Source of the DNA: Candidatus Zhuqueibacterota bacterium
GTDB taxonomy: Bacteria; Zhuqueibacterota; Zhuqueibacteria; Thermofontimicrobiales; Thermofontimicrobiaceae
NCBI GenBank assembly: GCA_049322915.1
Contig: JBMOPW010000035.1
Coordinates: 64,001-128,000, forward strand
Direction: 5' to 3'
Length of the DNA stretch: 64,000 nucleotides
A model generated the notes under the pieces. The model worked only from the letters and a program-made list of their open reading frames with translations. It ran no database searches and was not told the DNA's origin. The stretch's first letter is position 1, and every line of letters starts with the position of its first letter. A program made the position numbers and the translations under genes. Shown here piece by piece: positions 616-28,487 of this stretch.

Positions 616-2577
616 TCACTCTTTCTTCGTCAATTTTTCGTATTCCATTCCATGCTCCAGCTTAATCGTTTCTTCCGACATTTTGCCGGTGAAACAGGTG
701 GTGTTCATGGGATAGACATGGGGATCGAAGAACTGGTAATAGAAATGCCAGACAATGATAGCAACCGTGGCCAGAATGGCTTCATAATAATGAGCGACGG
801 TGCTGACATCCGAGACCAATTTCGGGAAATACTTCAACGAGATATTTTCAAACCACAAAATGAAGCCGGTCACGCTCATCACAATGGTGCCCCAGATGAG
901 CGCCCAGTACTCCGCTTTTTCGATGTAGTTATAATACGCGAACTTCGGGCGATCTTTCCGCAGACCCAGATTGTACTGAACATTTTGAATCACATCGAAC
1001 AGATCCTTCAATTTGGGCAGCATTTCCGTAATATGCCGTTTGCCGCGTTTTGTGGTAATGACATAGAACACGTGATAGAACGCGAGCAGCACCATCAATC
1101 CGCCAGCCAGCCGATGCAGATATCCTCGCATGGCAAACCCGCCGTCCCAGCGGGTGAATGGCGCAGCCCACCACGCTTCAGGAAATTTCAGGGCAAAACC
1201 GGTGATCACCAGGGTGATGAATGTGCCCATCAAAATGAAATGCTGGATTCGTTCGTTCAGGGACAACCGCACCATGGTAATTCCGTGCGATAATTCCTCA
1301 AAACTGTGATCCTCCACCCCTTTGATTTTCGCCTTGAATTTATGGATGAAATCGATGAGATTGTGCATGAACATGCCGCCAATGGTACCCACGATGAGGA
1401 ATATATAAAATGTGGTCACATAATAGATTGTCTTCTGCGACGTGGACGATCCTTTGATATGAATCGACCCAATCGCAACCATGTCGCTCACGCCTGGATG
1501 GCAGCTACCGCATGTTTGCTGCAGATTGGCTTTATTAACGGATGACTTGGGGTCGCTGGAGTGCAGTATTTTATGAACACCATGGCAACTGGCGCAGTTC
1601 GCTGTGACGACTGACCCGGCGCGATTTGCCAGTCCATGATAGCTGTCGTTATAACTATCCACTGCTTCTTTTTTTAGTCCGTACTTGGTGACGATCTGTT
1701 CTGCTTCATGACATCTCGGACAGGTTGTCTTTGAAATGACGGTTGAAAAGACCGTCGATTTCGGGTCGGTATGGGATTTAATATCATGTTCGGTATGGCA
1801 ATCGGTACATACCGGTGAATCCGTTGCGCCCGCCAACAATCCCTTGCCATGCACGCCAGCCATATATTCATCGAAAATTCCCTGGTGGCATTGCGCACAT
1901 GTCCTGGGAATATTGAACTTATTTGTCAGAGAAACCGGATTGCTGGAAGGCTGTAAATTGTGAGCGCCGTGACAATCGCTACATTTGGCTGCCTGCATAT
2001 TTCCTTCCTCAAGCGCAGAGCGGTAATGGATGCTCGTTTTATACGCCGCTGCCGGCTCTGAAATCGGAATATTGAACTTTTTCACAATGTTGGGATCAGA
2101 ATGACATTCACCGCAGATTTCGGGTTGATTCAGAACGAACATTGTTGACAGCGAGTCATCGATGGGGAACACGTAATGGGAGGTGTGGCAACTCCAGCAC
2201 TCAGGCGCCTCGAGATTGCCTTTGGCCAGGCTCTTCCCGTGAACGCTGGCCATATACTCCTGAGTCACATCGTCGTGGCAATTCCCGCAGTTCGGTTTTT
2301 CAAGTTTTTCGTCATGCGGAAGTTCGGTGATGGCGCTGTGACAATCGACGCAGGAAAGTCCGGCATGAACTGAATTGGAAAATTTTTCGAAATGGACAAA
2401 GAGGCTATCCTCCTTCCCATCTTCGTTCAGCCGGGTCAATGCCTTGTCGCTGTGGCATTCCATGCAGTCTTCGCTTGAAATATCCTGGCTCGCTCCAATT
2501 CCGGGAAATAGCAATACCATGGAAATTATGAAAGTCAGATAAACCGAAACCAACTTGCCTGTCATACTGTTCCTCAT
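616..2577 (-). CDS. Multiheme (11 CXXCH) cytochrome c fused to a C-terminal cytochrome b/FdnI-like membrane domain (CbcL-like)
   Basis: Signal peptide, 11 CXXCH motifs counted, then TM helices with ERIQH, LHR, EKAEYWAL and AHYYEA motifs. Confidence 0.9.
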   Translation of the reverse strand: MRNSMTGKLVSVYLTFIISMVLLFPGIGASQDISSEDCMECHSDKALTRLNEDGKEDSLFVHFEKFSNSVHAGLSCVDCHSAITELPHDEKLEKPNCGNCHDDVTQEYMASVHGKSLAKGNLEAPECWSCHTSHYVFPIDDSLSTMFVLNQPEICGECHSDPNIVKKFNIPISEPAAAYKTSIHYRSALEEGNMQAAKCSDCHGAHNLQPSSNPVSLTNKFNIPRTCAQCHQGIFDEYMAGVHGKGLLAGATDSPVCTDCHTEHDIKSHTDPKSTVFSTVISKTTCPRCHEAEQIVTKYGLKKEAVDSYNDSYHGLANRAGSVVTANCASCHGVHKILHSSDPKSSVNKANLQQTCGSCHPGVSDMVAIGSIHIKGSSTSQKTIYYVTTFYIFLIVGTIGGMFMHNLIDFIHKFKAKIKGVEDHSFEELSHGITMVRLSLNERIQHFILMGTFITLVITGFALKFPEAWWAAPFTRWDGGFAMRGYLHRLAGGLMVLLAFYHVFYVITTKRGKRHITEMLPKLKDLFDVIQNVQYNLGLRKDRPKFAYYNYIEKAEYWALIWGTIVMSVTGFILWFENISLKYFPKLVSDVSTVAHYYEAILATVAIIVWHFYYQFFDPHVYPMNTTCFTGKMSEETIKLEHGMEYEKLTKKE

Positions 2578-2624
2578 TTATGGATGATGTGATGATTTTA
2601 CAAATGAATGTAGCAACTGTGCAT

Positions 2625-2640
2625 TGCAATTATCTTGCCA
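2625..2640 (-). promoter_or_regulatory. Sigma-54 promoter (-24/-12) of the cytochrome c/b gene
   Basis: Minus strand TGGCAAGATAATTGCA = GG-N10-GC, 48 bp upstream of the start codon. Confidence 0.8.
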
Positions 2641-2763
2641 CCCAAAACTCGCCTTAATAAAATCAATTAAATAAGAGAATTCAATGCCCGTCACTTTGTT
2701 TCAGTGAATTGTTTTTTTCAGGTCGGGTACTTTTATCTGTTTATTTTTATTTGCGTAAAACAG

Positions 2764-2782
2764 GCGAAACAAATCGTTTCGC
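2764..2782. promoter_or_regulatory. Putative enhancer (bEBP binding site)
   Basis: Palindrome GCGAAAC-N5-GTTTCGC about 125 bp upstream of the sigma-54 promoter; the motif recurs at 4687-4705. Confidence 0.55.
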
Positions 2783-3134
2783 AGATCATGATACCCCAAC
2801 CCGGCTCTCGTTGTTAAATCCATTTAGTTTCTGTTATTTTGAATGTTAAATCAAATCTTCCCCTTATTTTTTTCTCACAGCGCCGACTCATAATTCTAAA
2901 ATTTTTATTGAATCTTTGATTTGAAACAACTATATTAGAACACTTTGTTTCACAGAAAAGCCGGCCGAACGAGTGGATCCAGGATTGTCAATTGATCCCG
3001 GCCAAAAATCAAGCAACGACCGATAGTTCAGATTGACATCATGCTTTTTCACTGAGCGCTAACGGACCAATGAATCGATACTTCTCTTTCGCGTCCAAAC
3101 TGGTATGGGAATTGAACGAAACTGGTAACTGAAT

Positions 3135-4460
3135 ATGGAACTGAATCCATCCCTGACAAACGATATATTAGACTCAATTGGCGAAGGATTGTTCACAGTA
3201 AATAAGGATTTTAAGATTAATTATTTTAATCGGGCTGCCGAGCGAATTACAGGTCTGAAACGCAAGGACGTCTACGGCAAATTTTGCAAACATATTTTTA
3301 AGTCAAATCGATGCTTCATCAAATGCCCGATCGCCCATGTTTTGGAGACAGGGAAAAACATCTATGACCTGGAATCGAAGATCAGAAACGTCAATGGCAA
3401 TTTCATCCCGATCAAAATGAACGTCTCCATTCTGCGCAACAACGAAAATGAGCCGGTGGGCGGCGTGATTTCCTTTCGCGATATATCCGAGTTGGAGATA
3501 TTGCGTGATAAGCACATCAAAAAGAACCTGTTTTATGGCATCATCGGCCACACCAAAGTGATGCAGGAAATCTTCGAATTGATCGAGGAGATTTCCGATT
3601 CGGATGCCACTGTGCTCATTCAGGGTGAATCCGGCACAGGTAAGGAAATGGTTGCCAACGCCGTACAGGCCACAAGTCTGCGCAAAGATCAGCCGTTTGT
3701 CAAAGTGAACTGTTCGGTTTTCACGCCGCAACTTCTGGCCAGCGAGTTGTTTGGTCACGTGAAGGGCGCGTTCACCGGAGCAATAAAAGAGCGACCGGGT
3801 CGATTTGAAATTGCGGACGGTGGGACCATATTCCTGGATGAGGTCGGCGAAATGCCTCTGCAAATGCAGTTGCAGCTGTTACGGGTGCTGCAGGAAGGCA
3901 CCTTCGAGCGGGTTGGCGAATCGGAGACGCGCCGCGTTGACATTCGGGTGATTGCCGCGACGAATAAAAATATCAAAGCATCCATCGCAGATGGGCATTT
4001 TCGGGAGGATTTGTACTATCGGCTCAACGTGATTCCCATTGAAATTCCTCCGATCAAAAAGCGCCCGGAAGACATCCCGCACCTGATAAAACATTTTTTG
4101 AAAAAATTTTCATTGATCTATAATAAAAACATACACGACATCGATGATACTGCGCTCGAATTACTCACCCATTATCCCTGGCCGGGCAATGTCCGCGAAT
4201 TGGAAAATGCCCTGGAGTACGCGTTTGTGCGGACGAAAGATAAAAAGATTATCGAAGCGATTAAATTGCCGCCGAATGTTCGGGAGCACGCTGACTTATC
4301 GTTGAATCAACCAGGCGCGTGTGAAATCGATAGCGAGTCTTCTCACATCATGCACTTACTGGAAAAATATCAATGGAATAAAACGAAAGTCGCCAAAGAA
4401 CTTGGCATTGGTCGCAGCACGCTCTGGCGCAAAATGAAATCCTTCACTGAGAAGGCCTGA
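3135..4460 (+). CDS. PAS-domain sigma-54-dependent transcriptional activator with C-X8-C-X3-C motif (OrpR-like)
   Basis: PAS N-terminus containing CKHIFKSNRCFIKC, GESGTGKE Walker A, GAFTGA loop, C-terminal HTH. Confidence 0.9.
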   Translation: MELNPSLTNDILDSIGEGLFTVNKDFKINYFNRAAERITGLKRKDVYGKFCKHIFKSNRCFIKCPIAHVLETGKNIYDLESKIRNVNGNFIPIKMNVSILRNNENEPVGGVISFRDISELEILRDKHIKKNLFYGIIGHTKVMQEIFELIEEISDSDATVLIQGESGTGKEMVANAVQATSLRKDQPFVKVNCSVFTPQLLASELFGHVKGAFTGAIKERPGRFEIADGGTIFLDEVGEMPLQMQLQLLRVLQEGTFERVGESETRRVDIRVIAATNKNIKASIADGHFREDLYYRLNVIPIEIPPIKKRPEDIPHLIKHFLKKFSLIYNKNIHDIDDTALELLTHYPWPGNVRELENALEYAFVRTKDKKIIEAIKLPPNVREHADLSLNQPGACEIDSESSHIMHLLEKYQWNKTKVAKELGIGRSTLWRKMKSFTEKA

Positions 4461-4686
4461 GTGAATCGGGGCGCTGCCATCCGCCCTGTCGAACCATTTG
4501 AAATCACGCTACCAGTGAATCATCAGTTCGGCCATTGCTCAATGAAATAGCCGTCGAATACTGTCATGGAGAAATTGTGTTGAAGAAAGTTGAGCGCAGT
4601 TGCTTGACGCCATCAGCAGCAGCGAGAGGGCAGATTTGGAGTGCAGTTTCAGGATCAACTATCATCGTGGCTGTGTTTCGTTTCAA

Positions 4687-4705
4687 GCGAAACACTTTGT
4701 TTCAC
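4687..4705. promoter_or_regulatory. Putative enhancer (bEBP binding site)
   Basis: GCGAAAC-ACTTT-GTTTCAC; the 16-mer AACACTTTGTTTCACA also occurs at 2939-2954. Confidence 0.55.
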
Positions 4706-4828
4706 AAAGGATATATCTATTAATTTCAAACAACTATCATCTCGTTTTTTCTTACAGTCAGATAATTGAAACACTCTGCCCGGCGCCGAATAAGAAAATC
4801 TGGCATGTTTTTATTGAAGTTATTCTGA

Positions 4829-4844
4829 TGGCATGAAATTTGAT
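4829..4844 (+). promoter_or_regulatory. Sigma-54-like promoter with variant -12 element (TTGA)
   Basis: TGGCATGAAATTTGAT = GG-N10-GA, followed by RBS GAGGGA and ATG at 4869. Confidence 0.55.
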
Positions 4845-4868
4845 GTAGCTCCGCTATTTGAGGGAACT

Positions 4869-5318
4869 ATGTCTGAAATGTTAGGAAATCAATATTTTTT
4901 AACGCGCAAATACGCGCTTGCCGCTCGGGAACTCGAATCGGCTCTGGTGAAAGATCCGCGAAGTAAAGTCATTCGACGGAAGCTCATCATTTGTTTTATC
5001 CAGACCGGCAACATTGACAAGGCGGAAGAACTGTTTCTGGACCTCGTCCAACAGGACGTATCGTTCATCATTGAATCAGATCCTATCATCGATGACTGTC
5101 CCTGTCCGGAACTGGTAAACGATGTCGAGGCGCAGATAGCCGGCGAGAAAAACTCGCCTTCGTACATGTTGAAGTTGGGCATGCTCTGGTTGTATTGTGA
5201 CATTAGAAAATCGATTCACTATTTCACGAGTTTGCAAAAAATTGAACCGAACAATCAAATGGTAAAAATTGTGCTATTCCATCTCAAGTCATTTTTGTTG
5301 AGCAAAGAGGTATTGTAG
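4869..5318 (+). CDS. TPR-like protein with a CPC motif
   Basis: Helical repeat pattern and DDCPCPEL; start moved from 4833 to the RBS-preceded ATG at 4869. Confidence 0.65.
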   Translation: MSEMLGNQYFLTRKYALAARELESALVKDPRSKVIRRKLIICFIQTGNIDKAEELFLDLVQQDVSFIIESDPIIDDCPCPELVNDVEAQIAGEKNSPSYMLKLGMLWLYCDIRKSIHYFTSLQKIEPNNQMVKIVLFHLKSFLLSKEVL

Positions 5319-5407
5319 CACTTTGGCGTAAGTAAGAAACACTGGAAATAATCACTGTATTTTAATCCGTCGTTACATGTCATTAAATTGTTAGCAGAGA
5401 GGAACAA

Positions 5408-6733
5408 ATGAAAGTAAAACTTTTTACCATTTGTAGTCTGTTGCTACTCTCCATGATTCTTATTTTTACCTGGGGATGTACTGATAAATACAAACCCGCT
5501 CCCAGCGTTTTCTCCTCTGTGGAAGAATCAAGTTGTACGCACTGTCACCTTGATGCAACTCTACTGAAACAAGTGGCCACGCCAATTCCCCCGGATGAAG
5601 GCGAATCAGGCGAGGGTTGAGGCGGCGCTGTGTCTCAGTTAGAGGCATGGGAAATGGTACTTGTTGATAACAGTTTTCTGAATACAAAACACGGCAGCTT
5701 CGGATGCACGTCATGTCACAAGGGTAATAAAGACGCGTACGACAAAGAGACCGCTCACGTCAGCCTGGTCGCTGCGCCGAGCGAAAATGATGCCACGTAC
5801 TGCTCCGGTTGCCATGAGGATATTGTGGCTCATTATGCATCCTCCCTTCACAAGACACAAAAAGGGTACTTCAAGCGAATCGAAAATCGATTGGGGTACA
5901 GCATAGAAAGTGACGCGGGCATAATGGAGAAATATGATGAGGAATGCGGGAAATGCCATGTCAGTTGTGGGCAATGCCACATCTCCCGACCGGTTTCAGT
6001 AAAAGGCGGATTCATCGCCGGGCACAATTTTGGCGCGCCGACGCGGGATAACAATTGCGTGGCATGTCACGGCAGCCGCGTTGGGGCAGAATACCTCGGA
6101 CAAAACGAAAACTATGCGGCTGATGTCCACCGCTACAAACCAGGCGGCAGCAATTGCACCATGTGCCACACCGGCATGGAAATGCACGGGACCGGCGAGG
6201 AATTCGACTACCGTTACCTGAATACGGATATGCCGCGCTGTGAAAATTGTCATGCAGATGTCGACACAATTAATTTCTACCATCAAAAGCATGTGTCCAG
6301 CACCACGATACCGACGCTCTCCTGTCAGGTATGCCATTCACAGGATTATAAAAACTGCAATAGCTGCCACACCGGCGGCGCCGGCATTACCGGGGATTCC
6401 TATTTCAAATTCAAGATTGCCAAGAATAAATTCAATCTCGAATCTGCAAACCGTACCTATGATTACGTGGCAGTCCGGCACATTCCGATTGCGCCGGACA
6501 CATACGCAAGTTGGGGAATAACTGATTTACCAAATTACAACACTGAACCTACGTGGAAATATGCAACGCCGCACAACATTCAACGCTGGACCGCTCGGAC
6601 AGATACGACGGGTAGCACCCGATGCTCGAGCAAATGCCATAATTCGACGACCTATTATTTAACTTCAGCCGACTTATTCGACTATGAAGTCGAAGCAAAT
6701 AAAGATATTATTATGGACGACAAACTCAAATAG
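5408..6733 (+). CDS. Probable selenocysteine-containing multiheme cytochrome c lipoprotein (441 aa, Sec71, 10 CXXCH + 1 CX3CH)
   Basis: ORFs 5408-5620 and 5630-6733 are in frame across TGA 5618-5620 (...ESGEG-U-GGAVSQLEAWE...). Only the first part has a lipoprotein signal (TWGC). A SECIS-like hairpin follows the TGA. Confidence 0.8.
5630..5648 (+). promoter_or_regulatory. Bacterial SECIS-like hairpin
   Basis: GUGUCUC-AGUUA-GAGGCAU; the loop starts 16 nt after the UGA and has G at loop position 2. Confidence 0.7.
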
Positions 6734-6778
6734 AAACACTTAATTCATTTCAAATCATTTAATTTAGGAGGTACAGAG

Positions 6779-7783
6779 ATGTACAAGAAAATTCCTGTTC
6801 TGTTCTTGATTTTATCATTAGCTTTGTTCATGGTAGTTGGTTGCGATGACGACGAAACCACGGAACCTGAAGAAATTAATGAGTTCGAACTGTTAACGGA
6901 AGTCGGTGATGTTTACGTTGCTAATTACACAACCCAGGGTGGGTTGGGCGTCAACACGACCATCACTGCTGTATTCGACAACCTGACAGACGGCAATACC
7001 GCCAATGATCCGTATATCATTGACTACCGCTCCGCTGCGGATTACGCGATTGTTCATATTAAAGGCGCCCATTCAATGGCCATGACCGATCTGGTCGCGA
7101 AACTTGATGATGGCACCATTCCCAAAGATAAAACCATTTTGAACGTTTGCTACACCGGTCAAACGGCAAGCTCCGCCACTGCATTTTTGAACCTGTTAGG
7201 ATACGAAGCACAGAACCTGTCTTACGGCATGTGCTCGGTCGATACATCCTTCAGTAACACCAAACAGTGGAAAAACGCTGTGAAAACTGACGAACATGCC
7301 GGCGATGTTGTCTCTACAGCTTCCACCACCACGACAACACACGATTTCCCGACGCTGTCCACAGGTGGAACCACCGCCGAAGAAATCTTCAAAGCACGTT
7401 TCAATGAAGTGATTGCCGCAAGCTGGCCCAAAATTGATGCCAACTTAGTGTGGGATAATCCAGGCAACTACTTCATCGTCAATTACTGGCCGGCCGCCGA
7501 ATATACCAATCCAGGCCATATTCCCGGCGCTTACCAGTTCTCACCAAATACAACGCTGCTCAGCACAGCGCAGTTAAACCTGTTGCCGACGGATAAAACC
7601 ATTGTGGTTTACTGCTACACTGGTCAGACATCGGCTCAGATTTGTACCTATCTGACCATGCTGGGCTACGATGCAAAGAGCTTGCTGTACGGATTCAATG
7701 GTTTCGCTCATGGAATTATGACGAAAAACAAGTATGCCGGTTCAGCAGCACCTGGAACATACGATGCTATTTTAGAAAAATAA
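6779..7783 (+). CDS. Tandem rhodanese-domain (sulfurtransferase) lipoprotein
   Basis: Lipobox VVGC; two rhodanese domains with HIKGA/HIPGA and active-site loops VCYTGQTA and YCYTGQTS. Confidence 0.9.
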   Translation: MYKKIPVLFLILSLALFMVVGCDDDETTEPEEINEFELLTEVGDVYVANYTTQGGLGVNTTITAVFDNLTDGNTANDPYIIDYRSAADYAIVHIKGAHSMAMTDLVAKLDDGTIPKDKTILNVCYTGQTASSATAFLNLLGYEAQNLSYGMCSVDTSFSNTKQWKNAVKTDEHAGDVVSTASTTTTTHDFPTLSTGGTTAEEIFKARFNEVIAASWPKIDANLVWDNPGNYFIVNYWPAAEYTNPGHIPGAYQFSPNTTLLSTAQLNLLPTDKTIVVYCYTGQTSAQICTYLTMLGYDAKSLLYGFNGFAHGIMTKNKYAGSAAPGTYDAILEK

Positions 7784-7796
7784 CTTAACGAGAACG

Positions 7797-7835
7797 AGCG
7801 GCATTCTTTCACAGTGGAAGAATGCCGCTTTCATT
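7797..7835 (+). terminator. Intra-operon stem-loop/terminator between rhodanese and porin
   Basis: AGCGGCATTCTT...AAGAATGCCGCT followed by TTCATTTATT. Confidence 0.7.
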
Positions 7836-7864
7836 TATTAAAACTTAAGCTGAGTAAACGAGCT

Positions 7865-9058
7865 ATGATACCAAAAATAAGAATAGGTCTTCTCAGTCTA
7901 TTGATGGTCTCTTTGAGTGTTGGCTATGTGTACGGGATCGATTTTCACGGCAAAACGTCCAACACCGTTTATAGCTATGAAGATACAACTCAACATACTC
8001 GCCTGTTTCAATTCATTCGCTTTAGCCTGGAATCACCCAAATTGAGCAACCTCTCTCTGAATACATCTCTCAGAGCTTTAACCGATCTCAACGAAACACT
8101 GGAAGACGAACAGCGATTCAAAGCTTACGCGCTCAATTTGCAGTACAAAAATCTGTTCAACCGAGTCGATCTCGTCCTCGGGCGCCAGTTTCTCCACCCG
8201 GGCGCCGCACTTGGAGGATTGGACGGTCTGTACACCAAAGTCAAAATTTCGAACCGAATGAATATCTCGGCGTACGCTGGCGCAGAAGCCCACTTCAACA
8301 GCAGCCTCAAAATTTACAAATCAGAGGACAGTTTTGTCGCCGGCGGCTTATTCGAAATGAATCGGTTCTTCTCCACAGGGACGCAATTGTTTTACCTGCA
8401 AAAATCCAATGAAGACGGATTGTTCTGGCAACTCGCCGGACTGAACCTGACCAATAGCTCGTTGCCCCGGACCAATGTCCGGTTGCAAGCGCACTTCGAT
8501 CTTCAAACATCCGCTTTTCACAGGTTGATGTTCTCGGCTAAACATGATGTGAATGATAAAATTTCACTCAATGCCGGCTTTAAAAATCAAATGCCGCAAA
8601 TCTACGCCAACTCCTTTTTCACACTATTTGATGTCGACGGTTACACCCAATTCAATGCTGGCTGCACCTACAAAATGGTTCAGAATCTCTTTCTGAGCGG
8701 GCAGTACCAACTCGTCCAGTTCGACCAGGAGTCGGCCAACCGCATTTTTTTCACCGTCAATAATCTGAACGGCAGCATTGGCGTCATTTATGAGACAGGA
8801 TACGCCGGCGAACAATTGGGGCTCATTCTCGACTATGCCCATTCCATCACACCTGCGTTGTTAGCGTCGATCAACATTGATTATTCCCGGTATAAAACAG
8901 AAAAAGTGTTCGAATACGAAAATCAGATCGCCAATGCGGTACGATTATCCTATCGTTTTCAACGTCACTGGTCCATCGATCTAGAGTATCAATGGTTGAC
9001 AAACCGTTTTAAAGAACAGGATTCACGAATTTTAAATCATGTCCACTTTAGTTGGTAA
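7865..9058 (+). CDS. Outer-membrane beta-barrel (porin of a porin-cytochrome complex)
   Basis: Signal peptide from ATG 7865, alternating beta-strand pattern, C-terminal aromatic residue (HVHFSW), directly upstream of multiheme genes. Confidence 0.75.
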   Translation: MIPKIRIGLLSLLMVSLSVGYVYGIDFHGKTSNTVYSYEDTTQHTRLFQFIRFSLESPKLSNLSLNTSLRALTDLNETLEDEQRFKAYALNLQYKNLFNRVDLVLGRQFLHPGAALGGLDGLYTKVKISNRMNISAYAGAEAHFNSSLKIYKSEDSFVAGGLFEMNRFFSTGTQLFYLQKSNEDGLFWQLAGLNLTNSSLPRTNVRLQAHFDLQTSAFHRLMFSAKHDVNDKISLNAGFKNQMPQIYANSFFTLFDVDGYTQFNAGCTYKMVQNLFLSGQYQLVQFDQESANRIFFTVNNLNGSIGVIYETGYAGEQLGLILDYAHSITPALLASINIDYSRYKTEKVFEYENQIANAVRLSYRFQRHWSIDLEYQWLTNRFKEQDSRILNHVHFSW

Positions 9059-9070
9059 GGGATAATAATC

Positions 9071-9949
9071 ATGAAAAAAATTGTATGTGTCGTGCTGGGG
9101 CTTCTTGTTGCTTTCTTTTTAAGCAATGTCTCAACGGCCCAGGAATTAGAACTCATCTTTTCCCATAAATATCACGCCATAGAGGTTGAAGCAGAATGCG
9201 AAGCCTGTCATGCTGCCTCGGCAAGCATGCTGTCAACCGATAACCTGTTGCCCGACATGGAAAAATGTTATACCTGCCACAGCCAGGATGAAGAATGCAG
9301 CAAATGCCACAAAGACCCGGACAATGCCATCGTCTATCCCCGAATCACGGATTACATCGCCAAGTTCCCGCACAGCACACACGCTGCCAAAGGACTGGCC
9401 TGCGAAAAATGTCATGCCGGAGTCGCTGAAAGTGGCAACATCCTGGAAAAACACCTGCCAACCATGGCCAGTTGCACCGACTGTCACGATCAGCTTGCCC
9501 GGGAGAATTATTGCTATACCTGCCATAACACCGGCGAGGCCCTGAAGCCTGGCGATCACAATTTAGCCTGGAACAAGGAGCATGGATTGGCTTCATACAC
9601 GGCCGATAACTCCTGCAAAACCTGCCATCCGGACGATATGTGTTTGAATTGCCACCGCGGCGATAATCTGGATCATCAGGTGCACTCACTGAATTTTGTG
9701 AATAATCACAGTCTCCAGGCAAAGGGCAACAAAGAGAATTGCTACACCTGTCATGAAGAATTGTCCTTCTGCGTCGACTGCCATCGCCAGCGAATGGTGA
9801 TGCCGCGGAACCACGCGACAGCGAGTTGGTCCAATACTTCTTCCGGAGGTGGGCATGCGCGAGCCGCGAAACTGGATATGGATTCATGCCTGAGCTGCCA
9901 TTCCGATGCCGCTGGAGATCCTGTGTGCGTTCAGTGTCACCAGAAATAA
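9071..9949 (+). CDS. Periplasmic dodecaheme cytochrome c
   Basis: Signal peptide; 12 CXXCH motifs counted. Confidence 0.9.
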   Translation: MKKIVCVVLGLLVAFFLSNVSTAQELELIFSHKYHAIEVEAECEACHAASASMLSTDNLLPDMEKCYTCHSQDEECSKCHKDPDNAIVYPRITDYIAKFPHSTHAAKGLACEKCHAGVAESGNILEKHLPTMASCTDCHDQLARENYCYTCHNTGEALKPGDHNLAWNKEHGLASYTADNSCKTCHPDDMCLNCHRGDNLDHQVHSLNFVNNHSLQAKGNKENCYTCHEELSFCVDCHRQRMVMPRNHATASWSNTSSGGGHARAAKLDMDSCLSCHSDAAGDPVCVQCHQK

Positions 9950-9992
9950 GTTCAATGTATTGTGGAAAATTGACGTCTTAGCCTGAGGGTGA

Positions 9993-10415
9993 ATGATGAA
10001 AACTTTTTTTACTCTGCTCATACTATCTCTGTCCACGGCTCTCGTCATTCTGAGCTGCGCGGAAGATAAAAATCCATTACCAAGCACCTCGCATCCGGAT
10101 GAATGGAATACTGTTGGCGCCGATAACTTCCATGGCAGCAAAGTATTAGCCGTCGGATCCAGTTCATGCAAAAGCTGTCACGGCGTCGACCTTAAAGGAA
10201 GCGACACCGGCGAAAGCTGTTTCAAATGTCACCAGAGCTATCCCCACTCCGAGGAATGGATGATGGCTGACAGTGATAATTCTCACAGTGAATATATCAA
10301 AAAGAATAGCGACGCCATGAATAAATGTAAAAACTGCCACGGCAGCAATCTGACCGGCGGGAAAAGCGGCGTCTCCTGTTTCAAATGTCATGCGGCTGAT
10401 ACATTGCCATTGTAA
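9993..10415 (+). CDS. Tetraheme cytochrome c lipoprotein
   Basis: Lipobox ILSC; 4 CXXCH in two internally repeated units (CKxCHG.xLxG...SCFKCH). Confidence 0.85.
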   Translation: MMKTFFTLLILSLSTALVILSCAEDKNPLPSTSHPDEWNTVGADNFHGSKVLAVGSSSCKSCHGVDLKGSDTGESCFKCHQSYPHSEEWMMADSDNSHSEYIKKNSDAMNKCKNCHGSNLTGGKSGVSCFKCHAADTLPL

Positions 10416-10727
10416 ATCATTCTTGCAATCTGAAACGCGATCTTATCTCGTTGAACTCAGGGAGCTTATCCAAGGGGTTTTCAATGTGTATTCATTAGCT
10501 GAAAATATCTCATGGCCACAACGGATAAGATCGCTTTTCAGGTTTTTTGTCATTATCAATAAATTACCCTCACACATATTTTCAGTATTAACTATCCCTC
10601 GTCTTTGGCACAACCATGCAAAGTTCGAAAGACTTTCATGTTGCGGCAATTCGCCGGCAGATGAAATTCCCGGATGCAACCATGACATTGTTGTTAAATT
10701 TTTTCACGTCAGGCGTCTGAAATTAAA

Positions 10728-12326
10728 ATGAAGAAATTGACTAAATTATTTTCCCGAATCAGTATCCGGCTATTCATTCTTCTCTCGCTGCACATTATCC
10801 TGGTTTTTGTGATTATCAACTATGTCAATTTCCATTATTTCGCTCATAAAATGGAAGGCTGTATGGCGGATTATGCCATTCAGGCCGGCAATTTGATCAA
10901 AGAGTCCACGCGAATCAGCATGTTACAAAACGACCGTGTGAACCTCGCTCGTATCATGACGAATTTGAACAGCGTTGAGTACATTGAAGGCATTCGAATT
11001 TATAACAAGAAAGGCGTCATTCAATTTTCCGGCGATTCCACAGAAGTAGGGCAAACAGTGAGCATTCATGACGAGCAGTGCATTTTTTGCCATGAAAGCG
11101 AAAAAGCCAGAGGCGCCATCCCTCAAAAAAATCGTTTCAGGGAATGCCCATCCACCAATGGCTATCGGGTGATGGGATTGATCAATCCCATTGAAAATTC
11201 ACCAGCATGCTATAACGCCGCCTGTCACGCGCATGCCAGCGACGAGACGATATTGGGACTGTTGGATATTCAATTGTCATTGAAAAAACTGGACGTCAAT
11301 ACCCGGGATGCGCGATCCAAGTCGTACATCTTTTATGGGATCATTACCATAATCTCGGCCATTGTATTCAACCGGATTATTCGCACGCAGATACAACGTC
11401 CGATTTCTGAACTGATTCAGGGCACGCAGCAAGTCGCGCATTTGAATCTGGAGCACATTATCCAGATCGACTCCCCTGAGGAAATGGCGAAGTTGGCCGC
11501 CTCTTTCAACAAAATGACGCTGAAATTGAAACAGGCTCAGGAAGAATTGAAAGAATGGTCCAACCGGCTGGAAGAGAAGGTGCAGCAGAAAACCGAAGAG
11601 TTGAGTCAGGCGCAGAGCCAATTGATCATGGCGGAGAAACTGGCTTCCATGGGGAAGCTTTCAGCGGTTGTCGCCCATGAGATCAACAATCCCCTCTCCG
11701 GCATTTTGACCTATTCCAAATTGATGATCAAAAGTCTCCAGCCTTATAAAAATGAACAGGCCGTCAGCAAGGCCATCGAAAATTTGAAAATCATCAGGGA
11801 CGAATCAAAGCGGTGCGGCGACATTGTCAGGAACCTGCTCATTTTTTCGAAAAAATCTTTCGGTGAGAAAAAGCAATCCAACCTGACATCGATACTCAAC
11901 AGAAGTATTGAACTGGTACAGCATAGCATCGCGATGCGCGAAATTCAACTGACAACAGATTTTGACACGGATGAAGCGCCCATCCATTGTGACGCTGCCG
12001 CTCTGGAACAAATGACGGTCGCGCTGCTGATCAATGCAATCGAAGCCATCCCTGAGGGATCGGGAAAAATAAACATCGCGTTGGAGAGAACAAATCAGGG
12101 GACGACGTACTCCATAAAAATCAGCGACAACGGCGTAGGCATCGATGAAGCGGCAATTCCCCATATCTTTGAGCCGTTTTATTCGACTAAGACCAATGAA
12201 AAAAGCGTGGGACTGGGATTAGCCGTGGTGTACGGCATCGTCGAACGTCATCAGGGCGCCATCCAGGTGAAATCACAAAAGGACGTGGGGACGATTTTCA
12301 CCATTGAGCTTCCTGTTTCAGAGTGA
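10728..12326 (+). CDS. HAMP sensor histidine kinase with a periplasmic heme-motif domain
   Basis: Two TM segments, CIFCH and CYNAACH, H-box AHEINNP, G-box GLGL. Confidence 0.9.
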   Translation: MKKLTKLFSRISIRLFILLSLHIILVFVIINYVNFHYFAHKMEGCMADYAIQAGNLIKESTRISMLQNDRVNLARIMTNLNSVEYIEGIRIYNKKGVIQFSGDSTEVGQTVSIHDEQCIFCHESEKARGAIPQKNRFRECPSTNGYRVMGLINPIENSPACYNAACHAHASDETILGLLDIQLSLKKLDVNTRDARSKSYIFYGIITIISAIVFNRIIRTQIQRPISELIQGTQQVAHLNLEHIIQIDSPEEMAKLAASFNKMTLKLKQAQEELKEWSNRLEEKVQQKTEELSQAQSQLIMAEKLASMGKLSAVVAHEINNPLSGILTYSKLMIKSLQPYKNEQAVSKAIENLKIIRDESKRCGDIVRNLLIFSKKSFGEKKQSNLTSILNRSIELVQHSIAMREIQLTTDFDTDEAPIHCDAAALEQMTVALLINAIEAIPEGSGKINIALERTNQGTTYSIKISDNGVGIDEAAIPHIFEPFYSTKTNEKSVGLGLAVVYGIVERHQGAIQVKSQKDVGTIFTIELPVSE

Positions 12327-12407
12327 AATCCGCCCCGTGAAATGGTGCCGATTCCGCTGCAGATGACTTCCATCAGAACTTATTGAAAATATTTCGAGGT
12401 TTATTTT

Positions 12408-13772
12408 ATGAACAACAAAGATATCAGCATTCTGATTGTCGATGATGAATTTTCGGTGCGGGACTCGCTCTGCCAATGGTTCAAAGCAGAGGGCTTTCAT
12501 GTGGCGACAGCGGAAAGTGCGAATACTGCGTTCGAAATGTTCAAACGTCAGACCTGGGATATTGTTCTGCTGGATATCAGAATGACGGGGATGGACGGGA
12601 TCGAATTCAACAGGCACATCATGAGTGTGGACAAAAGCGTCATCGTCATCATGATCACTGCATTCGCCACCGTCGAAACGGCGGTGCAGGCGATTAAGGA
12701 TGGGGCGTTTGACTATATTTCAAAACCAATTGATCCGGAATATCTATCGCATATCGTCCGCAATGCCCTGGAAAAACGGCAACTGGCGCGGGAGAATATT
12801 CAACTTCGGGAGCGGATCGAAGATTTGACCACGCCGGATGATATTATTGGCACGTCGGCGCGGCTGCGGGACGTGCTGAAGATGGTGGCCTCGGTCGCCA
12901 AATCCGATAGCACCGTGATGATCCGCGGTGAAAGCGGCACAGGGAAAGAACTGATTGCGCGCGCCATTCACAGCAATTCCCATCGCCGGTACGCGCCGAT
13001 CATCTCCATCAATTGCGGCGGAATGACTGAGTCGTTGCTGGAGAGTGAATTATTCGGCCATGAAAAAGGCGCCTTCACCGGCGCGGAACGACTGCGGATT
13101 GGCAAATTGGAGCGCGCCAATAAAGGTACAGTTTTTTTCGATGAAATCGGGAACATCAGCATGAAGATGCAAATGGACTTGCTGCGCGTGCTGGAAACAA
13201 AGCAGTTCACCCGACTGGGCAGCGAAAAACAGGTTGAAGTGGATTTTCGGGTAATCAGCGCCACAAATAAAGACCTGGAAAAGGCGGTCAAGTCCGGCGA
13301 TTTCCGCGAGGATTTATATTTTCGGTTGAATGTCATCTCGATTGAAATGCCTACGCTGCGCGATCGAAAAGAGGATATTCCGTTGCTGGCGCGATTCTTC
13401 TTCAATAAATACAGGCAATCCATGTCCAAGCCGATCAAGGACATATCCCAGGACGCAATGGAAACACTATTGAGCTACGAGTGGCCCGGCAACATCCGTG
13501 AATTGAGAAATGTGATCGAACGCGCAGTTGTCGTCTGCGACAATATTGTGATCAAACCCGACCATTTCACATTCCCATTTCGGGACAAATTCACATCGGC
13601 GGCATTCACAGATTACAGTCTGGAGGGCGCTGAGAAGATGCAGATTCAGCGGGTGTTGAAGCAAACCGGCGGCAACATTTCCAGGTCAGCAGAGATTCTG
13701 AAAATCGACCGCACGACGCTGTATAACAAGCTTAAAAAATTTGATCTCAACAAAATGACTTCATTCGAATGA
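12408..13772 (+). CDS. NtrC-family sigma-54 response regulator
   Basis: REC domain, GESGTGKE, GAFTGA, HTH. Confidence 0.92.
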   Translation: MNNKDISILIVDDEFSVRDSLCQWFKAEGFHVATAESANTAFEMFKRQTWDIVLLDIRMTGMDGIEFNRHIMSVDKSVIVIMITAFATVETAVQAIKDGAFDYISKPIDPEYLSHIVRNALEKRQLARENIQLRERIEDLTTPDDIIGTSARLRDVLKMVASVAKSDSTVMIRGESGTGKELIARAIHSNSHRRYAPIISINCGGMTESLLESELFGHEKGAFTGAERLRIGKLERANKGTVFFDEIGNISMKMQMDLLRVLETKQFTRLGSEKQVEVDFRVISATNKDLEKAVKSGDFREDLYFRLNVISIEMPTLRDRKEDIPLLARFFFNKYRQSMSKPIKDISQDAMETLLSYEWPGNIRELRNVIERAVVVCDNIVIKPDHFTFPFRDKFTSAAFTDYSLEGAEKMQIQRVLKQTGGNISRSAEILKIDRTTLYNKLKKFDLNKMTSFE

Positions 13773-14257
13773 TCCGCGCCATTTTCACGCCATCGACGAA
13801 AGCTCCCGATTCCCCCGCCGGCCAATTCACGCGCCGGAAATAACCGCCGGACATTCAGCCATTCCGAGTTACTGCAAATGAAAATCCGCTACCTCGGTCC
13901 CACTGGTTGGGCAAAGTAACGGATATGCATTTTCCCCACTCACCGCTTGTTCCGACGCCGTCCTCTCCTGTCGTGCATTACTTCATCAAAGAAGCACGAT
14001 GAGCGGACCAGCGAGCATATTCTCCTAGTGGATGGATTGATGGACGTCTTATTTCAATTGTATGCCGCGTTCATGGTTAACAACCTGCCGCCTCTAATGG
14101 AGTGAACGGTCAGGTTGTCAGGTCTTTATTCTACCGGATGTAACTTAAAAGGCTCCTTTTCTGCTGATGGGACTGAGGCCAGTTTATTGGAATTGCTGTC
14201 GCTGTGAACTGCAGCACAGGCAACTAGCAATCACAATTTACGAACGCCTCCACTCCA

Positions 14258-15430
14258 TCACTCGAAAGATTTGCGTTGGAAGTACTCGCTGTAAGCCGCC
14301 CACAGGCTGGTAACAAAACGCTCCGTGTCGTCTGCCGGTTTCCCTTCTGCCTGTTGCAATGATTCTTCCAATTTAGTGTTGATCATCTTGCTGATCTCGT
14401 GAAATCTATCAATTTCCTTCTGATACCATTGCATTGTGTCCGAGCCAATCTTCAGCCCCGGCAGTTCATTGCTGAGATTCTCCGGTTCGATGTTGCACAT
14501 CCATCCAAGTTCATACGGCTTGATATTGACATAATCGATATGGTCTTCGAGATTGGCATTGATCGATACCACGGTTCCGCTGATGGGAGCGGGAAAATTC
14601 AGGGACTGGTCGCCGCGCTGCACGGTGAACAGCAAATCACCTTTTTTGACTTTCTGCCCCTTCTTTGGCAGAACAACGCTTTTGATTTTGCTCAAAATCT
14701 TTTGGGAGAAATCATCGATGCCGACGCGCGCCAATCCGTTCAAATCAATTCTGACCCAGGTGTGAGTCGGCGCTATGAAAATCCCGGCTGGCACATTAAA
14801 TTCATGGCTTGATTTGGACTCGCCGTGCGAAGGAGTAATGAGATGCACCGCCGGCTTGGTGACACGCTCGATCTTGTCCTGGCGCCGGATTAACGACTTG
14901 TTGACAAAATCCACCAATTCATCTTCAGTGAATGGCTTTTGCACATAATCCGTGGCGCCGTATTTCATGGTCGCCACAGCGGTTTCAATGGTCGCGTAGC
15001 CGGTGATGACGATGATATCGATATCCGGACGCAGATGTTTTGCAGCCTTGGTCACTTCAACGCCATCCATCACTGGCATTTTCAAATCCGTGAACAGGAA
15101 ATCGTATTCGGTCTTCTTCAAAAGCCCCAGGGCCTCGGGACCGGTCTCCACGGTATCGATTGAATATCCGGCCAGCACCAGTATTTTTCGGAAACTTGCC
15201 AGTACCACTTCTTCATCGTCCACTGCCAGAATTTTAGCTTTGGGATGGTCGACTTCGACCCGTTTCAGGGATTTGGCCTCTTCCGTGAAATCTAACCGAA
15301 GGCCAATGTCCAGAGCTTCTTCCCGTTCTTTCTTAAGTTTGGAATGCTCCATTTTTTTAAGAACGATTCGTAAAACGGCGTCAGCCAGAATGAAAATAAT
15401 AACGGTTACAATCAGAAATAAGACGACCAT
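14258..15430 (-). CDS. Membrane-anchored response regulator receiver fused to a GcvH-like domain
   Basis: N-terminal TM, REC domain (LAVDDE...DLKMP...KPF), then HTWVR..VGIDDF..APISGTV..N..PYELGW. Confidence 0.8.
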   Translation of the reverse strand: MVVLFLIVTVIIFILADAVLRIVLKKMEHSKLKKEREEALDIGLRLDFTEEAKSLKRVEVDHPKAKILAVDDEEVVLASFRKILVLAGYSIDTVETGPEALGLLKKTEYDFLFTDLKMPVMDGVEVTKAAKHLRPDIDIIVITGYATIETAVATMKYGATDYVQKPFTEDELVDFVNKSLIRRQDKIERVTKPAVHLITPSHGESKSSHEFNVPAGIFIAPTHTWVRIDLNGLARVGIDDFSQKILSKIKSVVLPKKGQKVKKGDLLFTVQRGDQSLNFPAPISGTVVSINANLEDHIDYVNIKPYELGWMCNIEPENLSNELPGLKIGSDTMQWYQKEIDRFHEISKMINTKLEESLQQAEGKPADDTERFVTSLWAAYSEYFQRKSFE

Positions 15431-15506
15431 AATTTCTCCTTCCTAATAGAATGATAATTGGGTACCACGTGCGCAGGATATTCAATGCATCATTCGCCTC
15501 ATTCAC

Positions 15507-16301
15507 TTAGATGCGGCGAAGGCTCAAGTTATTCAGGTCTTTCTCCAGATTTGTCGGAACGACTTGAATCAGCCAGCCATCATGATACGGAGAGGTATTT
15601 AATTTATCCATCTCGCGTTCCAGGCGCTTGTTCAAAGCGACAATCTTACCGCCTAGTGGCGCCCACACCATGTGATTGAGATAGTCTTCCGAGATAATTC
15701 GCACACATAAATTCCCCTGTGATATCTCATTATTGACAAGCGGGAATTCTATTGAATTGATCGTTCCCATGCAGCCAGCGAACGTTTCCCCCAAACCCAG
15801 CGTGCAGATGCCGTCGCTATTCAATTTTGTCCAGGAGTGCTGACCTAATAAATAATACGGCGCTCCTTCGCTATTCTGCTGCGCGTCGTTCTGGAGTTGT
15901 AGGGATGATTGCGTTTCAGTTGCCCGTTCACTGAATTTCTTCGCACGAAAAATGACGCCAGCCAATTCTTCAAAATCAAACGGTTTGGGAATACAATCAA
16001 ATGCACCTGTCCTGAAAATTTTCACGGCATTGGCGTGTGAAGCATAGCCGGTGATGATGATGATTGGAATTGTCGCATTCAATTTTCTGGCATATTCGAT
16101 CACTTCGATTCCGGATTTACCAGGCAACATGAGATCCGACAGTATTAATTGATATTGATTTTTATCGAGTTTATCGAAAGCGCCCTCTGCGCTTTGCGCC
16201 ATATCGACATGAAATCCTTCGACGCTTAATATTCGTCTGGCTGCTTCAGCAACCACCAGTTCATCTTCGACCAGCAGAATATGATTATTTGGGTTCGTCA
16301 T
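15507..16301 (-). CDS. Response regulator receiver fused to a GcvH-like domain
   Basis: REC domain (LLVEDE...DLMLP...KPF) plus HSWTK...APLGGKIVALN...SPYHDGWL. Confidence 0.8.
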   Translation of the reverse strand: MTNPNNHILLVEDELVVAEAARRILSVEGFHVDMAQSAEGAFDKLDKNQYQLILSDLMLPGKSGIEVIEYARKLNATIPIIIITGYASHANAVKIFRTGAFDCIPKPFDFEELAGVIFRAKKFSERATETQSSLQLQNDAQQNSEGAPYYLLGQHSWTKLNSDGICTLGLGETFAGCMGTINSIEFPLVNNEISQGNLCVRIISEDYLNHMVWAPLGGKIVALNKRLEREMDKLNTSPYHDGWLIQVVPTNLEKDLNNLSLRRI

Positions 16302-17832
16302 GATTACATTTCGCAGATTCTTTTTTCGAACTGTCGCTCACCGGCAAACTCAACGTAAACGTTGTTCCTTTGCCCACTTCACTTTTCACTTCAATTTTCC
16401 CGTTGTGCTCTTCAACGATTCCCCAGACCACCGCCAACCCGAGGCCGGTGCCTTTCTGCCCCTTGGTGCTGTAAAACGGATCGAATATTTTTGAAAGATT
16501 CTCCAGGGGAATGCCACAGCCGAAGTCGGTGACATTGACTACAATACAATCCCGCTCTTTCACAATCACCCGTTCGGTAGAAATTAAAATTTCTCCGCCT
16601 TTGGGATCCATGGCATCCGCGGCATTCACTAACAAATTGATGAATACCTGCTGCAATTGATTGGCGTCCGCTTTAATCTCAGGCAAATCACCCGGTGAAT
16701 TCACCCGAACCGAGACATTCTTGAGATTCAATTGATTGCTCAGAATGTGTATTGTTCGCTCGATCACATCATCGATCCGAACAATCGAAATTTTCGCCGG
16801 CTCCTGGCGCGCGAAATCCAACAACCGTTTTACAATTTCGCGGCAACGCTTGCTCTCATGGACAATCACCTCCAGATCGCTCTTCACATCACTCGGTAGA
16901 TCCTTGCGCTTCAATAGAATGCTGCTGAACGAAAGCACGCCAGTGAGCGGATTGTTAATTTCATGAGCAATGCCGGACGTCAGCCGTCCCAATGACGCCA
17001 GCTTATCGGATTGGTAAAGCTGACGCTGCACCGCAGCGAGTTTACTGGTCATCTCGTTGAACGATTGCTCGAGAAAACCTAACTCATCATTTTTGAATTT
17101 ATCGATCTTGTATTCGAGATTTCCTGCAGCAACGATCTTCGTCGCCTTTACCAACTGGTCCACCGGCTTGCCTACCAGGTTATGTACCAAACCCAGGAGG
17201 AGCAAACTGATTGTAATGATTGCACAGACGGTAAGTAAAATGATTTTTGAACGATTGGCATGTATCTGTTGTTCCACTTCATCCAGCCTCATAGTAATAT
17301 CGAGTACACCCAGCACCGTTTGACTTTCAGGATGAGCGTGACACTCCGCCTGCCAACACCCCGGAGCATTGTAAATTGGATTGATAATAGCCAACTGCAT
17401 CTTGCCATCTCGGTTTTTAAATACTCGGGCCCGTTCCGGAATCGTCAACTTTTCCAGCGGCGCACCAACTGCATGGCAGACAAAACAGGATTCCGCTTTT
17501 TTATCCACAAGCTGGCCAATTTCCGTGCTGTCTGTGGAATAAGTGATTTCACCGAGCTTATTGAAAATGCGAATTTTATCCAGGCCTTCCTGATCGCCGA
17601 ATCCCTCGATGATGCGATAGATATGCTGCGGCTGATCCTGCAACATATCATATTCAGTTGCATTCTTGATCGTCTCACTGCACTGACTGGCGCGGTTCTT
17701 CAACTGGTCAATCATCGCTTTTTGCTCGGACTCGATGATGAAAAAAGAAAAAATTGTAATGATCGAAATGGTCACACCACACACAGCAAGTATGAGCTTA
17801 TAACTTATTTTATTGATGCTGGAATATACCAC
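16285..17832 (-). CDS. HAMP sensor histidine kinase with a periplasmic heme-motif domain
   Basis: CFVCH and CWQAECH; AHEINNP; GTGLGL; paralog of 10728-12326. Confidence 0.9.
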   Translation of the reverse strand: MVYSSINKISYKLILAVCGVTISIITIFSFFIIESEQKAMIDQLKNRASQCSETIKNATEYDMLQDQPQHIYRIIEGFGDQEGLDKIRIFNKLGEITYSTDSTEIGQLVDKKAESCFVCHAVGAPLEKLTIPERARVFKNRDGKMQLAIINPIYNAPGCWQAECHAHPESQTVLGVLDITMRLDEVEQQIHANRSKIILLTVCAIITISLLLLGLVHNLVGKPVDQLVKATKIVAAGNLEYKIDKFKNDELGFLEQSFNEMTSKLAAVQRQLYQSDKLASLGRLTSGIAHEINNPLTGVLSFSSILLKRKDLPSDVKSDLEVIVHESKRCREIVKRLLDFARQEPAKISIVRIDDVIERTIHILSNQLNLKNVSVRVNSPGDLPEIKADANQLQQVFINLLVNAADAMDPKGGEILISTERVIVKERDCIVVNVTDFGCGIPLENLSKIFDPFYSTKGQKGTGLGLAVVWGIVEEHNGKIEVKSEVGKGTTFTLSLPVSDSSKKESAKCNHDEPK

Positions 17833-17931
17833 TTTTTATCCTCACAGTTTTATTATCGATCTCCGGTCAGCATTTCATGACCCAAATGGCAAACGCATCA
17901 CTCGAACTTCTGTTCCTTGAACTGATTGCTT

Positions 17932-28400: not shown

Positions 28401-28487
28401 TTAGCGCCTGCAATCGGCGATGCCAATACAATGATCCCTGAATCCAAAGCATTCTTGGTGAATGTCAGGAAGGAGGTGGCATCATGA
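25461..28487 (+). CDS. fdnG: Selenocysteine-containing formate dehydrogenase alpha subunit (1008 aa, Sec188)
   Basis: Tat motif SRRGFMK and CPYCAVGC; TGA 26022-24 lies in EHQARI-U-HSATVAALAESFGRGAMTNHW and joins ORFs 25461-26024 and 26073-28487. Confidence 0.95.
26040..26058 (+). promoter_or_regulatory. SECIS element of fdnG
   Basis: GCGGCUCU-GGC-AGAGUCGU; the loop G lies 23 nt after the UGA. Confidence 0.8.

Follow-up and report, generated by a model that had tools for sequence, protein, structure and literature searches.

A widespread eleven-heme cytochrome gene interrupted by UGA very likely encodes a selenoprotein and may act in sulfur reduction

The gene described here lies at positions 5408–6733 (+) of a 64,000-nt stretch of contig JBMOPW010000035.1 (hereafter, the window), which belongs to a Candidatus Zhuqueibacterota genome of 6.25 Mb in 45 contigs. 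Based on comparative sequence analysis, we hold with high confidence that 5408–6733 is one gene and that the UGA at 5618–5620, by which it is interrupted, is decoded as selenocysteine (Sec) through the SelA, SelB, SelD, and tRNA-Sec of the same genome. The predicted product is a lipid-anchored, exported c-type cytochrome of ∼46 kDa with 11 covalently bound hemes, and it would consist of three parts: a small N-terminal module bearing heme 1, a Gly-rich arm (G-E-G-U-G-G) with Sec71, and a core distantly related to octaheme tetrathionate reductase (OTR). To the whole of the favored explanation, in which decoding as Sec is joined to a function as a sulfur reductase, a probability of roughly 0.6 is assigned.

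The gene begins with an ATG-started open reading frame (ORF) of 70 aa at 5408–5620 (+), terminated by TGA at 5618–5620, and it continues in the same frame into a GTG-started ORF of 367 aa at 5630–6733 (+). Read through, the frame yields a product of 441 aa with this single in-frame TGA and a TAG stop at 6731–6733. A signal peptide ending at the lipobox Cys24 is encoded at 5408–5479 (+), and 93% of 103 non-redundant Sec/Cys-type homologues share this Cys. Upstream of the Sec codon lies heme motif 1 (CTHCH, residues 43–47; 5534–5548, +), whose C43, C46, and H47 are invariant in the same 103 homologues. Altogether, the protein has 10 CXXCH motifs (residues 43, 100, 132, 180, 187, 217, 250, 278, 306, and 317), one upstream and nine downstream of the TGA, followed by one CX3CH motif at residue 406. 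The 367-aa C-terminal ORF, taken alone, has no signal peptide. An earlier sequence-only reading of this DNA had proposed that the two ORFs form a single lipoprotein of 441 aa, in which Sec71 belongs to a flexible E-G-U-G-G linker and not to a CxxU motif. Its ORF lengths, frame, TGA, and heme motif counts, as well as the lack of an export signal on the C-terminal ORF, all check out on the sequence, and the proposed protein is supported by the comparisons that follow.

The extent of the gene is also indicated by full-length homologues that carry one in-frame TGA. A six-frame search of 167 genomes from the same phylum located the gene in 44 of them and gave 47 non-self matches, 44 of which cover codon 71. 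At this codon, TGA was found in 39 of the 44, Cys in two (TGT and TGC), and Leu, Arg, and Gly in one each. In addition, a scan of one genome per species returned at least 593 relatives, and the junction codon was read in the best 80 of these loci, giving TGA in 76, Cys in two, Arg in one, and Gly in one. The labels among these best 80 loci include KSB1, Calditrichota, Thermodesulfobacteriota, Eisenbacteria, Krumholzibacteriota, Planctomycetota, Chloroflexota, and Gemmatimonadota, and further Phycisphaerae, Anaerolineae, and Dehalococcoidia. The two sets overlap; once made non-redundant, they comprise 107 rows, of which 101 are Sec, two Cys, and four other. The check proposed in the sequence-only reading, whether homologues keep an in-frame TGA or a Cys at position 71, came out positive for most members of both sets. 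The TAA, TAG, or frameshift at the junction that it regarded as counterevidence was looked for and was found in none of the 44 phylum homologues or best 80 loci that cover the codon.

Conservation is seen on both sides of codon 71, in G-E-G-U-G-G and also in V-x-x-L-E-x-W. In every TGA-type relative from the phylum, a CXXCH motif and the ...G-E-G stretch are encoded upstream of the TGA, and a signal peptide with a lipobox Cys is found upstream in all of those not cut by a contig end. The two Cys forms (TGT and TGC in loci L034 and L035, also numbered L083 and L084) are continuous ORFs, and the proteins P0027 and P0122 have G-E-G/S-C-G-G at the Sec position.

These data bear directly on the alternative in which two proteins are made, with a stop at the TGA and an independent start at the GTG at 5630. 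As the sequence-only reading had cautioned, a GAGG at 5619–5622 overlaps the TGA, with the GTG 9 nt further on, and gene callers annotate the homologues in just this way. Protein conservation, however, crosses the TGA and covers the 9 nt before the GTG; the junction stop is always TGA (39 of 44 in the phylum and 76 of the best 80 loci); the Cys forms run through the junction uninterrupted; and the GTG codon itself sits in the stem of a conserved hairpin (see below). The 367-aa part would carry 10 heme motifs with no export signal. Because amino acid conservation runs over the TGA and the C-terminal part, whose hemes can be attached only once it is exported, brings no signal peptide, the caveat of an independent start is answered, and we consider two separate proteins very improbable. 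A pseudogene, an assembly error, or read-through of the UGA by a near-cognate tRNA inserting Trp or Cys has nothing specific in its favor beyond being the default reading of an in-frame stop. Against it stand the retention of TGA, along with every heme motif, in homologues from many phyla that share as little as ∼40% protein identity, the covariation of the hairpin, and the complete Sec machinery of the genome, and this explanation is scarcely credible.

A maximum-likelihood tree was calculated for the 107 rows and rooted at its midpoint for display only. The non-Sec forms, the Cys pair among them, branch from within the Sec rows at four places, and Sec is therefore likely to be the ancestral state. 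It was also noted that three genomes (G003, G006, and G004) have, beside the main copy, a second, divergent copy (L061, L062, and L063, respectively; ∼40% identity) with K-G-E-G-U-G-G and TGA. In G003, Leu replaces Sec in the main copy, and the second copy still has TGA.

The genome contains selA (561.6 bits) and selB (364.6 bits), which are adjacent, together with two selD genes and a tRNA-Sec that scores 63 bits (gathering score 47) and was confirmed by ARAGORN, with anticodon TCA. All components of the selA/selB/selC/selD set are thus present. That this organism uses Sec had been read earlier from a gene in the window, fdnG, and this sign proved sound: the gene, for an FdnG-type formate dehydrogenase alpha subunit (25467–28472, +), matches TIGR01553 with 1431 bits and has one in-frame TGA at 26022, which is a canonical Sec codon within ...HQARI-U-HSATV and has a strong hairpin downstream. 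TGA also serves as an ordinary stop in the window, where it closes 12 of 30 long stop-to-stop frames. As for the two selD copies (G000:C14:562220–563146 and G000:C2:57472–58398), one has an in-frame TGA (Sec-type SelD), and the other lies within a 736-aa open frame, which suggests fusion to another domain.

A hairpin resembling a selenocysteine insertion sequence (SECIS) follows the UGA at 5630–5648 (+). It has a conserved stem of 7 bp (5630–5636/5642–5648) and the loop AGUUA at 5637–5641 (consensus NGUUR), and it is the GUGUCUC-AGUUA-GAGGCAU element to which the sequence-only reading had drawn attention; the stem begins 9 nt and the loop 16 nt past the UGA. In the window sequence the stem reaches 9 bp (5628–5650), and the outer two pairs (columns 26–48 and 27–47) are not conserved, about half of the 40 phylum sequences being unpaired there. 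Across 77 Sec-type sequences, 83.1% of the cells of the 7-bp stem are paired, compared with 35.6–54.9% when the partner is slid by 1–3 columns. Cells changed on both sides number 46, against a shuffled mean of 13.0, and none of 500 shuffles reached the covariation score. Pair 30–44, for instance, occurs as GC in 45 sequences, CG in nine, AU in seven, and UA in two, and pair 31–43 occurs as CG in 33, GC in 20, and UG in 10. Covariation in the 40 phylum sequences agrees with this result. The hairpin, whose conservation among homologues the sequence-only reading had named as a check, shows compensatory changes. Within the loop, all 77 sequences have G at column 36 and T at column 38. Synonymous codon usage is constrained over the same region: in 36 Sec-type genes the normalized synonymous-codon entropy has a gene mean of 0.853 and a minimum of 0.33 at codons 70–79, and the eleven lowest windows all fall within codons 59–91.

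Database searches with the 441-aa cytochrome returned 2315 hits, and lengths and coverage were taken from the best 120 of them. Nearly all of these 120 are 313–392 aa long and cover 72–83% of the query, and the three truncated homologues that were aligned (P0005, P0013, and P0041) start just past the TGA. Those that are named are called "hypothetical" or "cytochrome c family protein." From the lengths and the starts past the TGA, it follows that the family is systematically annotated in truncated form, the split at the TGA by gene callers having been suspected from the sequence of this one gene. No NCBIfam model matched the cytochrome at E ≤ 0.01, and Pfam returned only generic multiheme families. 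The model for ExtKL/MccSep, NF040886, likewise gave no match at the locus (with a cut-off of 250 bits, its best match anywhere in the genome scores 34.6), consistent with the earlier view that the family is separate from ExtKL.

A review of May 2026 catalogues, in its available part, three CXXCH-containing selenoprotein families, namely ExtKL, the GSU2204 family, and a Sec variant of TIGR04315 that is annotated in GenBank (PMC13188914, partial text). None of these three matches the 441-aa cytochrome, whose family seems to be absent from selenoprotein lists. The GSU2204 family (NF041027) resembles it in being a CXXCH-containing selenoprotein (PMC13188914, partial text) and differs in giving no match to it, zero NCBIfam models being found at E ≤ 0.01. 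No description of the family was found in the literature, coverage of which was incomplete, with the homologue lists in data S1 and S2 of PMC13510729 lying outside the search.

For the core of the protein, a combination of profile and structural comparisons pointed to OTR. Alignment by hhalign with the OTR homologue of the same genome gave a probability of 97.6% (E 2.7e-12, 178 columns), and a profile search against the PDB retrieved 1sp3 (OTR) with an E value of 1.4e-5. An AlphaFold2 model of the cytochrome, with a predicted local distance difference test score (pLDDT) of 80.2, was compared by VIA-align, and 1sp3 again came first (Z 6.8, root mean square deviation 4.8 Å, 258 residues aligned; next Z 2.9). 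Foldseek of the model against the PDB returned nothing at E ≤ 0.001, and a single-sequence phmmer search against the PDB gave nothing significant. Judged by these comparisons, the core is a distant relative of OTR that lies outside TIGR04315, the score at the locus being 12.6 bits against a cut-off of 375. The substrate of OTR is an S-S compound. OTR has eight hemes compared with 11 here, and the cytochrome differs further by its extra N-terminal heme module, Sec arm, lipid anchor, and rhodanese partner. A genuine gene of the OTR family is present elsewhere in the genome (L070; G000:C7:2644–3906, −; TIGR04315, 596 bits), with no stop.

The sequence-only reading had instead likened the heme core to Mcc, the cytochrome of the Geobacter methacrylate system. 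This likeness was not upheld, the nearest solved or curated relative found being OTR. Mcc is called a tetraheme cytochrome in the available part of its description (PMC4427408, partial text), compared with 11 hemes here, and it was set aside as an identity for the cytochrome; Mcc is set apart by this description only.

The cytochrome gene stands next to a gene for a tandem-rhodanese lipoprotein of 334 aa (6779–7783, +; Pfam PF00581 in two stretches, E 1.6e-22). Both of its domains have the active-site loop CYTGQT, and the corresponding Cys124 and Cys279 are invariant in 38 sequences. A rhodanese homologue is adjacent at 37 of the 47 phylum loci and at 63 of the 76 Sec-type loci across phyla (within the best 80). 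In both Cys-type loci (L034/L083 and L035/L084) the rhodanese match is partial and the neighbor shortened, and no rhodanese match was found in the neighborhood of the Leu and Arg types (L053 and L054/L091). This hints that replacement of Sec and loss of the rhodanese are coupled, the cases being few and closely related. An arrangement of this kind is familiar from the Sud/Psr polysulfide respiration of Wolinella, in which a periplasmic rhodanese-type carrier passes sulfane sulfur to a respiratory reductase, a molybdoenzyme. The likeness lies in the combination of a rhodanese-type carrier with a respiratory reductase; here, a cytochrome with Sec and heme would stand in place of the molybdoenzyme. 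Longer rhodanese partners, of 644–746 aa, occur in some phyla (L112, L120, L127, and L158) and may be fused to further domains.

A comparison was also made with MccSep/ExtKL of Geobacter sulfurreducens (GSU2937-2936), a pentaheme selenoprotein polysulfide reductase whose biochemical characterization dates only from August 2026 (PMC13510729, partial text). Both are multiheme c cytochromes with one Sec in a Gly-containing flexible loop and no CxxU motif, the loop reading D-G-U-P in MccSep and G-U-G-G here. In the available part of the same source, MccSep is also split by gene callers at the UGA, is followed there by a SECIS-like hairpin, and has Cys forms derived from Sec forms (PMC13510729). 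By description, MccSep clusters with a rhodanese-like lipoprotein, ExtH, and a ∼45-kDa porin, ExtI (PMC5877670, partial text). The two proteins nevertheless have no detectable sequence relation, and they differ in the number of hemes (5 compared with 11), in the position of Sec (Sec325 in a C-terminal Ig-like domain compared with Sec71 near the N terminus), and in localization (soluble periplasmic compared with lipoprotein). According to the source, again as available in part, the Sec of MccSep attacks polysulfide next to a His/Cys heme (PMC13510729). The heme-ligating Cys239 of MccSep has no counterpart here, no conserved non-motif Cys besides that of the lipobox being found in the 103 Sec/Cys-type sequences.

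Further genes of electron transfer surround the pair. A putative porin-like outer-membrane beta-barrel of 414 aa follows at 7814–9058 (+), with a match to Pfam BBP2_2 (E 9.4e-5, 21.9 bits) that is below the gathering score of 23.7. A barrel is within reach at 18 of the 47 non-self phylum loci and 22 of the best 80 cross-phylum loci, mainly in loci of KSB1/Calditrichota type. Next is a secreted cytochrome of 292 aa at 9071–9949 (+), with 12 CXXCH by motif count, which follows the porin in several relatives and is within reach at 12 of the best 80 loci, mainly of the same type. On the opposite strand, 616–2577 (−) encodes a protein of 653 aa in which a multiheme cytochrome c (11 CXXCH by motif count) is fused to a cytochrome b561-type membrane domain (Pfam Cytochrome_C7 and Ni_hydr_CYTB). 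We take this fusion to be CbcL-like, and it is a candidate for electron entry from quinol. Comparison of the loci shows that what is kept across phyla is the cytochrome together with the rhodanese, and not the barrel or the periplasmic cytochrome.

This neighborhood invites a different assignment, in which the same selenoprotein forms the end of an electron conduit, either extracellular or periplasmic, for the reduction of selenite, tellurite, metals, or minerals, with the rhodanese handling selenium (as perselenide) or being accessory. A lipoprotein cytochrome, a putative barrel, a 12-heme periplasmic cytochrome, and a CbcL-like inner-membrane protein do form a cluster here, and the heme density of the cytochrome is typical of electron wires (PMC7096707, partial text). 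In the available parts of the respective sources, MccSep also reduces selenite (PMC13510729), and ExtI is linked to selenite and tellurite reduction (PMC5877670). Selenite, however, is the poorer substrate of MccSep (PMC13510729, partial text), and the nearest characterized relatives act on S-S compounds. Of the layout of a porin-cytochrome conduit (Mtr/Pcc type), the cytochromes are present here, and the putative barrel has the sub-threshold match given above; outside KSB1/Calditrichota, the barrel is absent near most loci. With the cytochrome and rhodanese as the cross-phylum core, compared with 22 of 80 loci for the barrel and 12 of 80 for the periplasmic cytochrome, we judge the conduit an unlikely but serious alternative.

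Instead, analogy and the neighboring genes lead us to prefer, at about even odds, a function in which the rhodanese supplies sulfane sulfur (polysulfide, S0, thiosulfate, or tetrathionate) to a reductase that depends on Sec and heme. The cytochrome would act as a pair with the adjacent tandem-rhodanese lipoprotein, whose Cys residues would take up sulfane sulfur as persulfide from polysulfide, S0, thiosulfate, or tetrathionate. From its flexible arm, Sec71 would then attack the S-S bond as the selenolate to give an Se-S intermediate, and electrons from the heme chain would reduce this intermediate with release of sulfide. The chain itself would be fed from the quinol pool via the CbcL-like protein (616–2577) and the 12-heme periplasmic cytochrome (9071–9949), and the 414-aa barrel may admit substrate or dock the lipoproteins.

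A possible catalytic site can be suggested from an alignment of the 103 non-redundant Sec/Cys-type sequences, in which the residues of heme 1 are numbered +7. All 11 heme motifs are invariant in this alignment, and the conserved His residues outside them number ten (H95, H117, H148, H206, H241, H260, H292, H295, H358, and H389). With 11 motifs and ten such His, one heme is left with no His partner and is the natural candidate for the catalytic site. The catalytic heme is probably this one, where Sec71 would either ligate it or sit over it; in the sequence-only reading, Sec was offered as a possible heme ligand or a carrier of sulfur or selenium. In a more specific version, Sec71 would be the sixth (distal) ligand of this heme and would leave the iron to attack the sulfane sulfur delivered by the rhodanese, a proposal that we regard as doubtful. 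To our knowledge, no natural selenolate-ligated heme c was known before, and a heme ligated by Sec71 would be the first.

The same components could also run in the oxidative direction, with thiosulfate, sulfide, or persulfide being oxidized, as by TsdA and SoxAX, and the electrons passed into the heme chain. Multiheme chains are reversible, and rhodaneses participate in thiosulfate oxidation; the chemistry of MccSep is, moreover, related to the reverse of TsdA/SoxAX thiosulfate oxidation (PMC13510729, partial text). The CbcL-like quinol-linked protein and the sigma-54 regulators of the region, on the other hand, suit a respiratory reductase as well or better, and no sox or dsr gene is found among the annotated neighbors (616–18735 of the window). 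Oxidation is judged rather improbable, a little more so than the conduit.

Several observations weigh against the favored explanation of a Sec-decoded sulfur reductase. The single-sequence fold of the hairpin is no better than that of shuffled sequences (z −0.22; 81 of 200 shuffles equal or better it), so support for the hairpin comes from comparison. There, too, the hairpin lies in coding sequence, so protein constraint explains part of its conservation, and 7–24 of the 77 sequences are unpaired at individual stem pairs; in some lineages the register of the stem seems to be shifted. Every heme motif is retained in the Leu, Arg, and Gly forms, suggesting that neither Sec nor Cys is needed for the protein to persist. 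The AlphaFold2 model has pLDDT < 50 at residues 70–72. No rhodanese was found within 2.5 kb in 13 of the 76 Sec-type loci, several of which stop at a contig edge, and the substrate is deduced solely from neighbors and analogy. Finally, the peptide mass of ∼4.2 kDa per heme in the cytochrome falls in the range of electron-transfer proteins and not of enzymes (PMC7096707, partial text), which counts somewhat against a classical enzyme.

Directly upstream of the cytochrome gene, a TPR protein of 161 aa (4833–5318, +; Pfam TPR_19) is encoded, which is found upstream at 26 of the 47 non-self phylum loci; before it lies a 441-aa regulator with PAS, sigma-54 activator, and HTH parts (3135–4460, +; NCBIfam/Pfam library matches). 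A cytochrome of 140 aa with 4 CXXCH by motif count and a lipoprotein-like N terminus (9993–10415, +) follows the 12-heme cytochrome, and downstream of the cluster are a histidine kinase (10728–12326, +) and a sigma-54 response regulator (12408–13772, +). A sigma-54 promoter pattern with two mismatches allowed occurs 32 times in the window compared with 37 expected, and no convincing site was seen upstream of 5408 or 4833. A one-mismatch match to the −24/−12 pattern, TGGCAAGATAATTGCA, lies at 2625–2640 (−), ∼50 nt upstream of the start of the 616–2577 fusion, the pattern not being enriched in the window.

A glycine-cleavage H-protein (lipoyl-carrier) domain was noted in three neighboring genes, at 14258–15430, 15507–16301, and 17932–18735 (all −). 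In two of the three, the domain is fused behind a response-regulator receiver, and a histidine kinase is encoded at 16285–17832 (−). For a two-component system, such an output domain is unusual.

The architecture of the cytochrome differs from those of the catalogued heme c selenoproteins, and the family occurs in at least 593 species-level genomes from many phyla, mostly uncultured. As the annotation is truncated and lacks the export signal, a complete exported redox enzyme, and with it probably a sulfur-cycling trait, is missing from metabolic reconstructions of these organisms. Thousands of database entries would be put right by a curated hidden Markov model used together with an annotation rule that allows for Sec. 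The conserved pairing with a rhodanese that has two active sites yields a model, open to direct testing, of S-S chemistry that depends on Sec and heme. Should Sec71 indeed ligate a heme, uncultured KSB1, Calditrichota, Chloroflexota, Planctomycetota, and others would share, through this family, an undescribed way of respiring sulfur (or selenium) that spans phyla.

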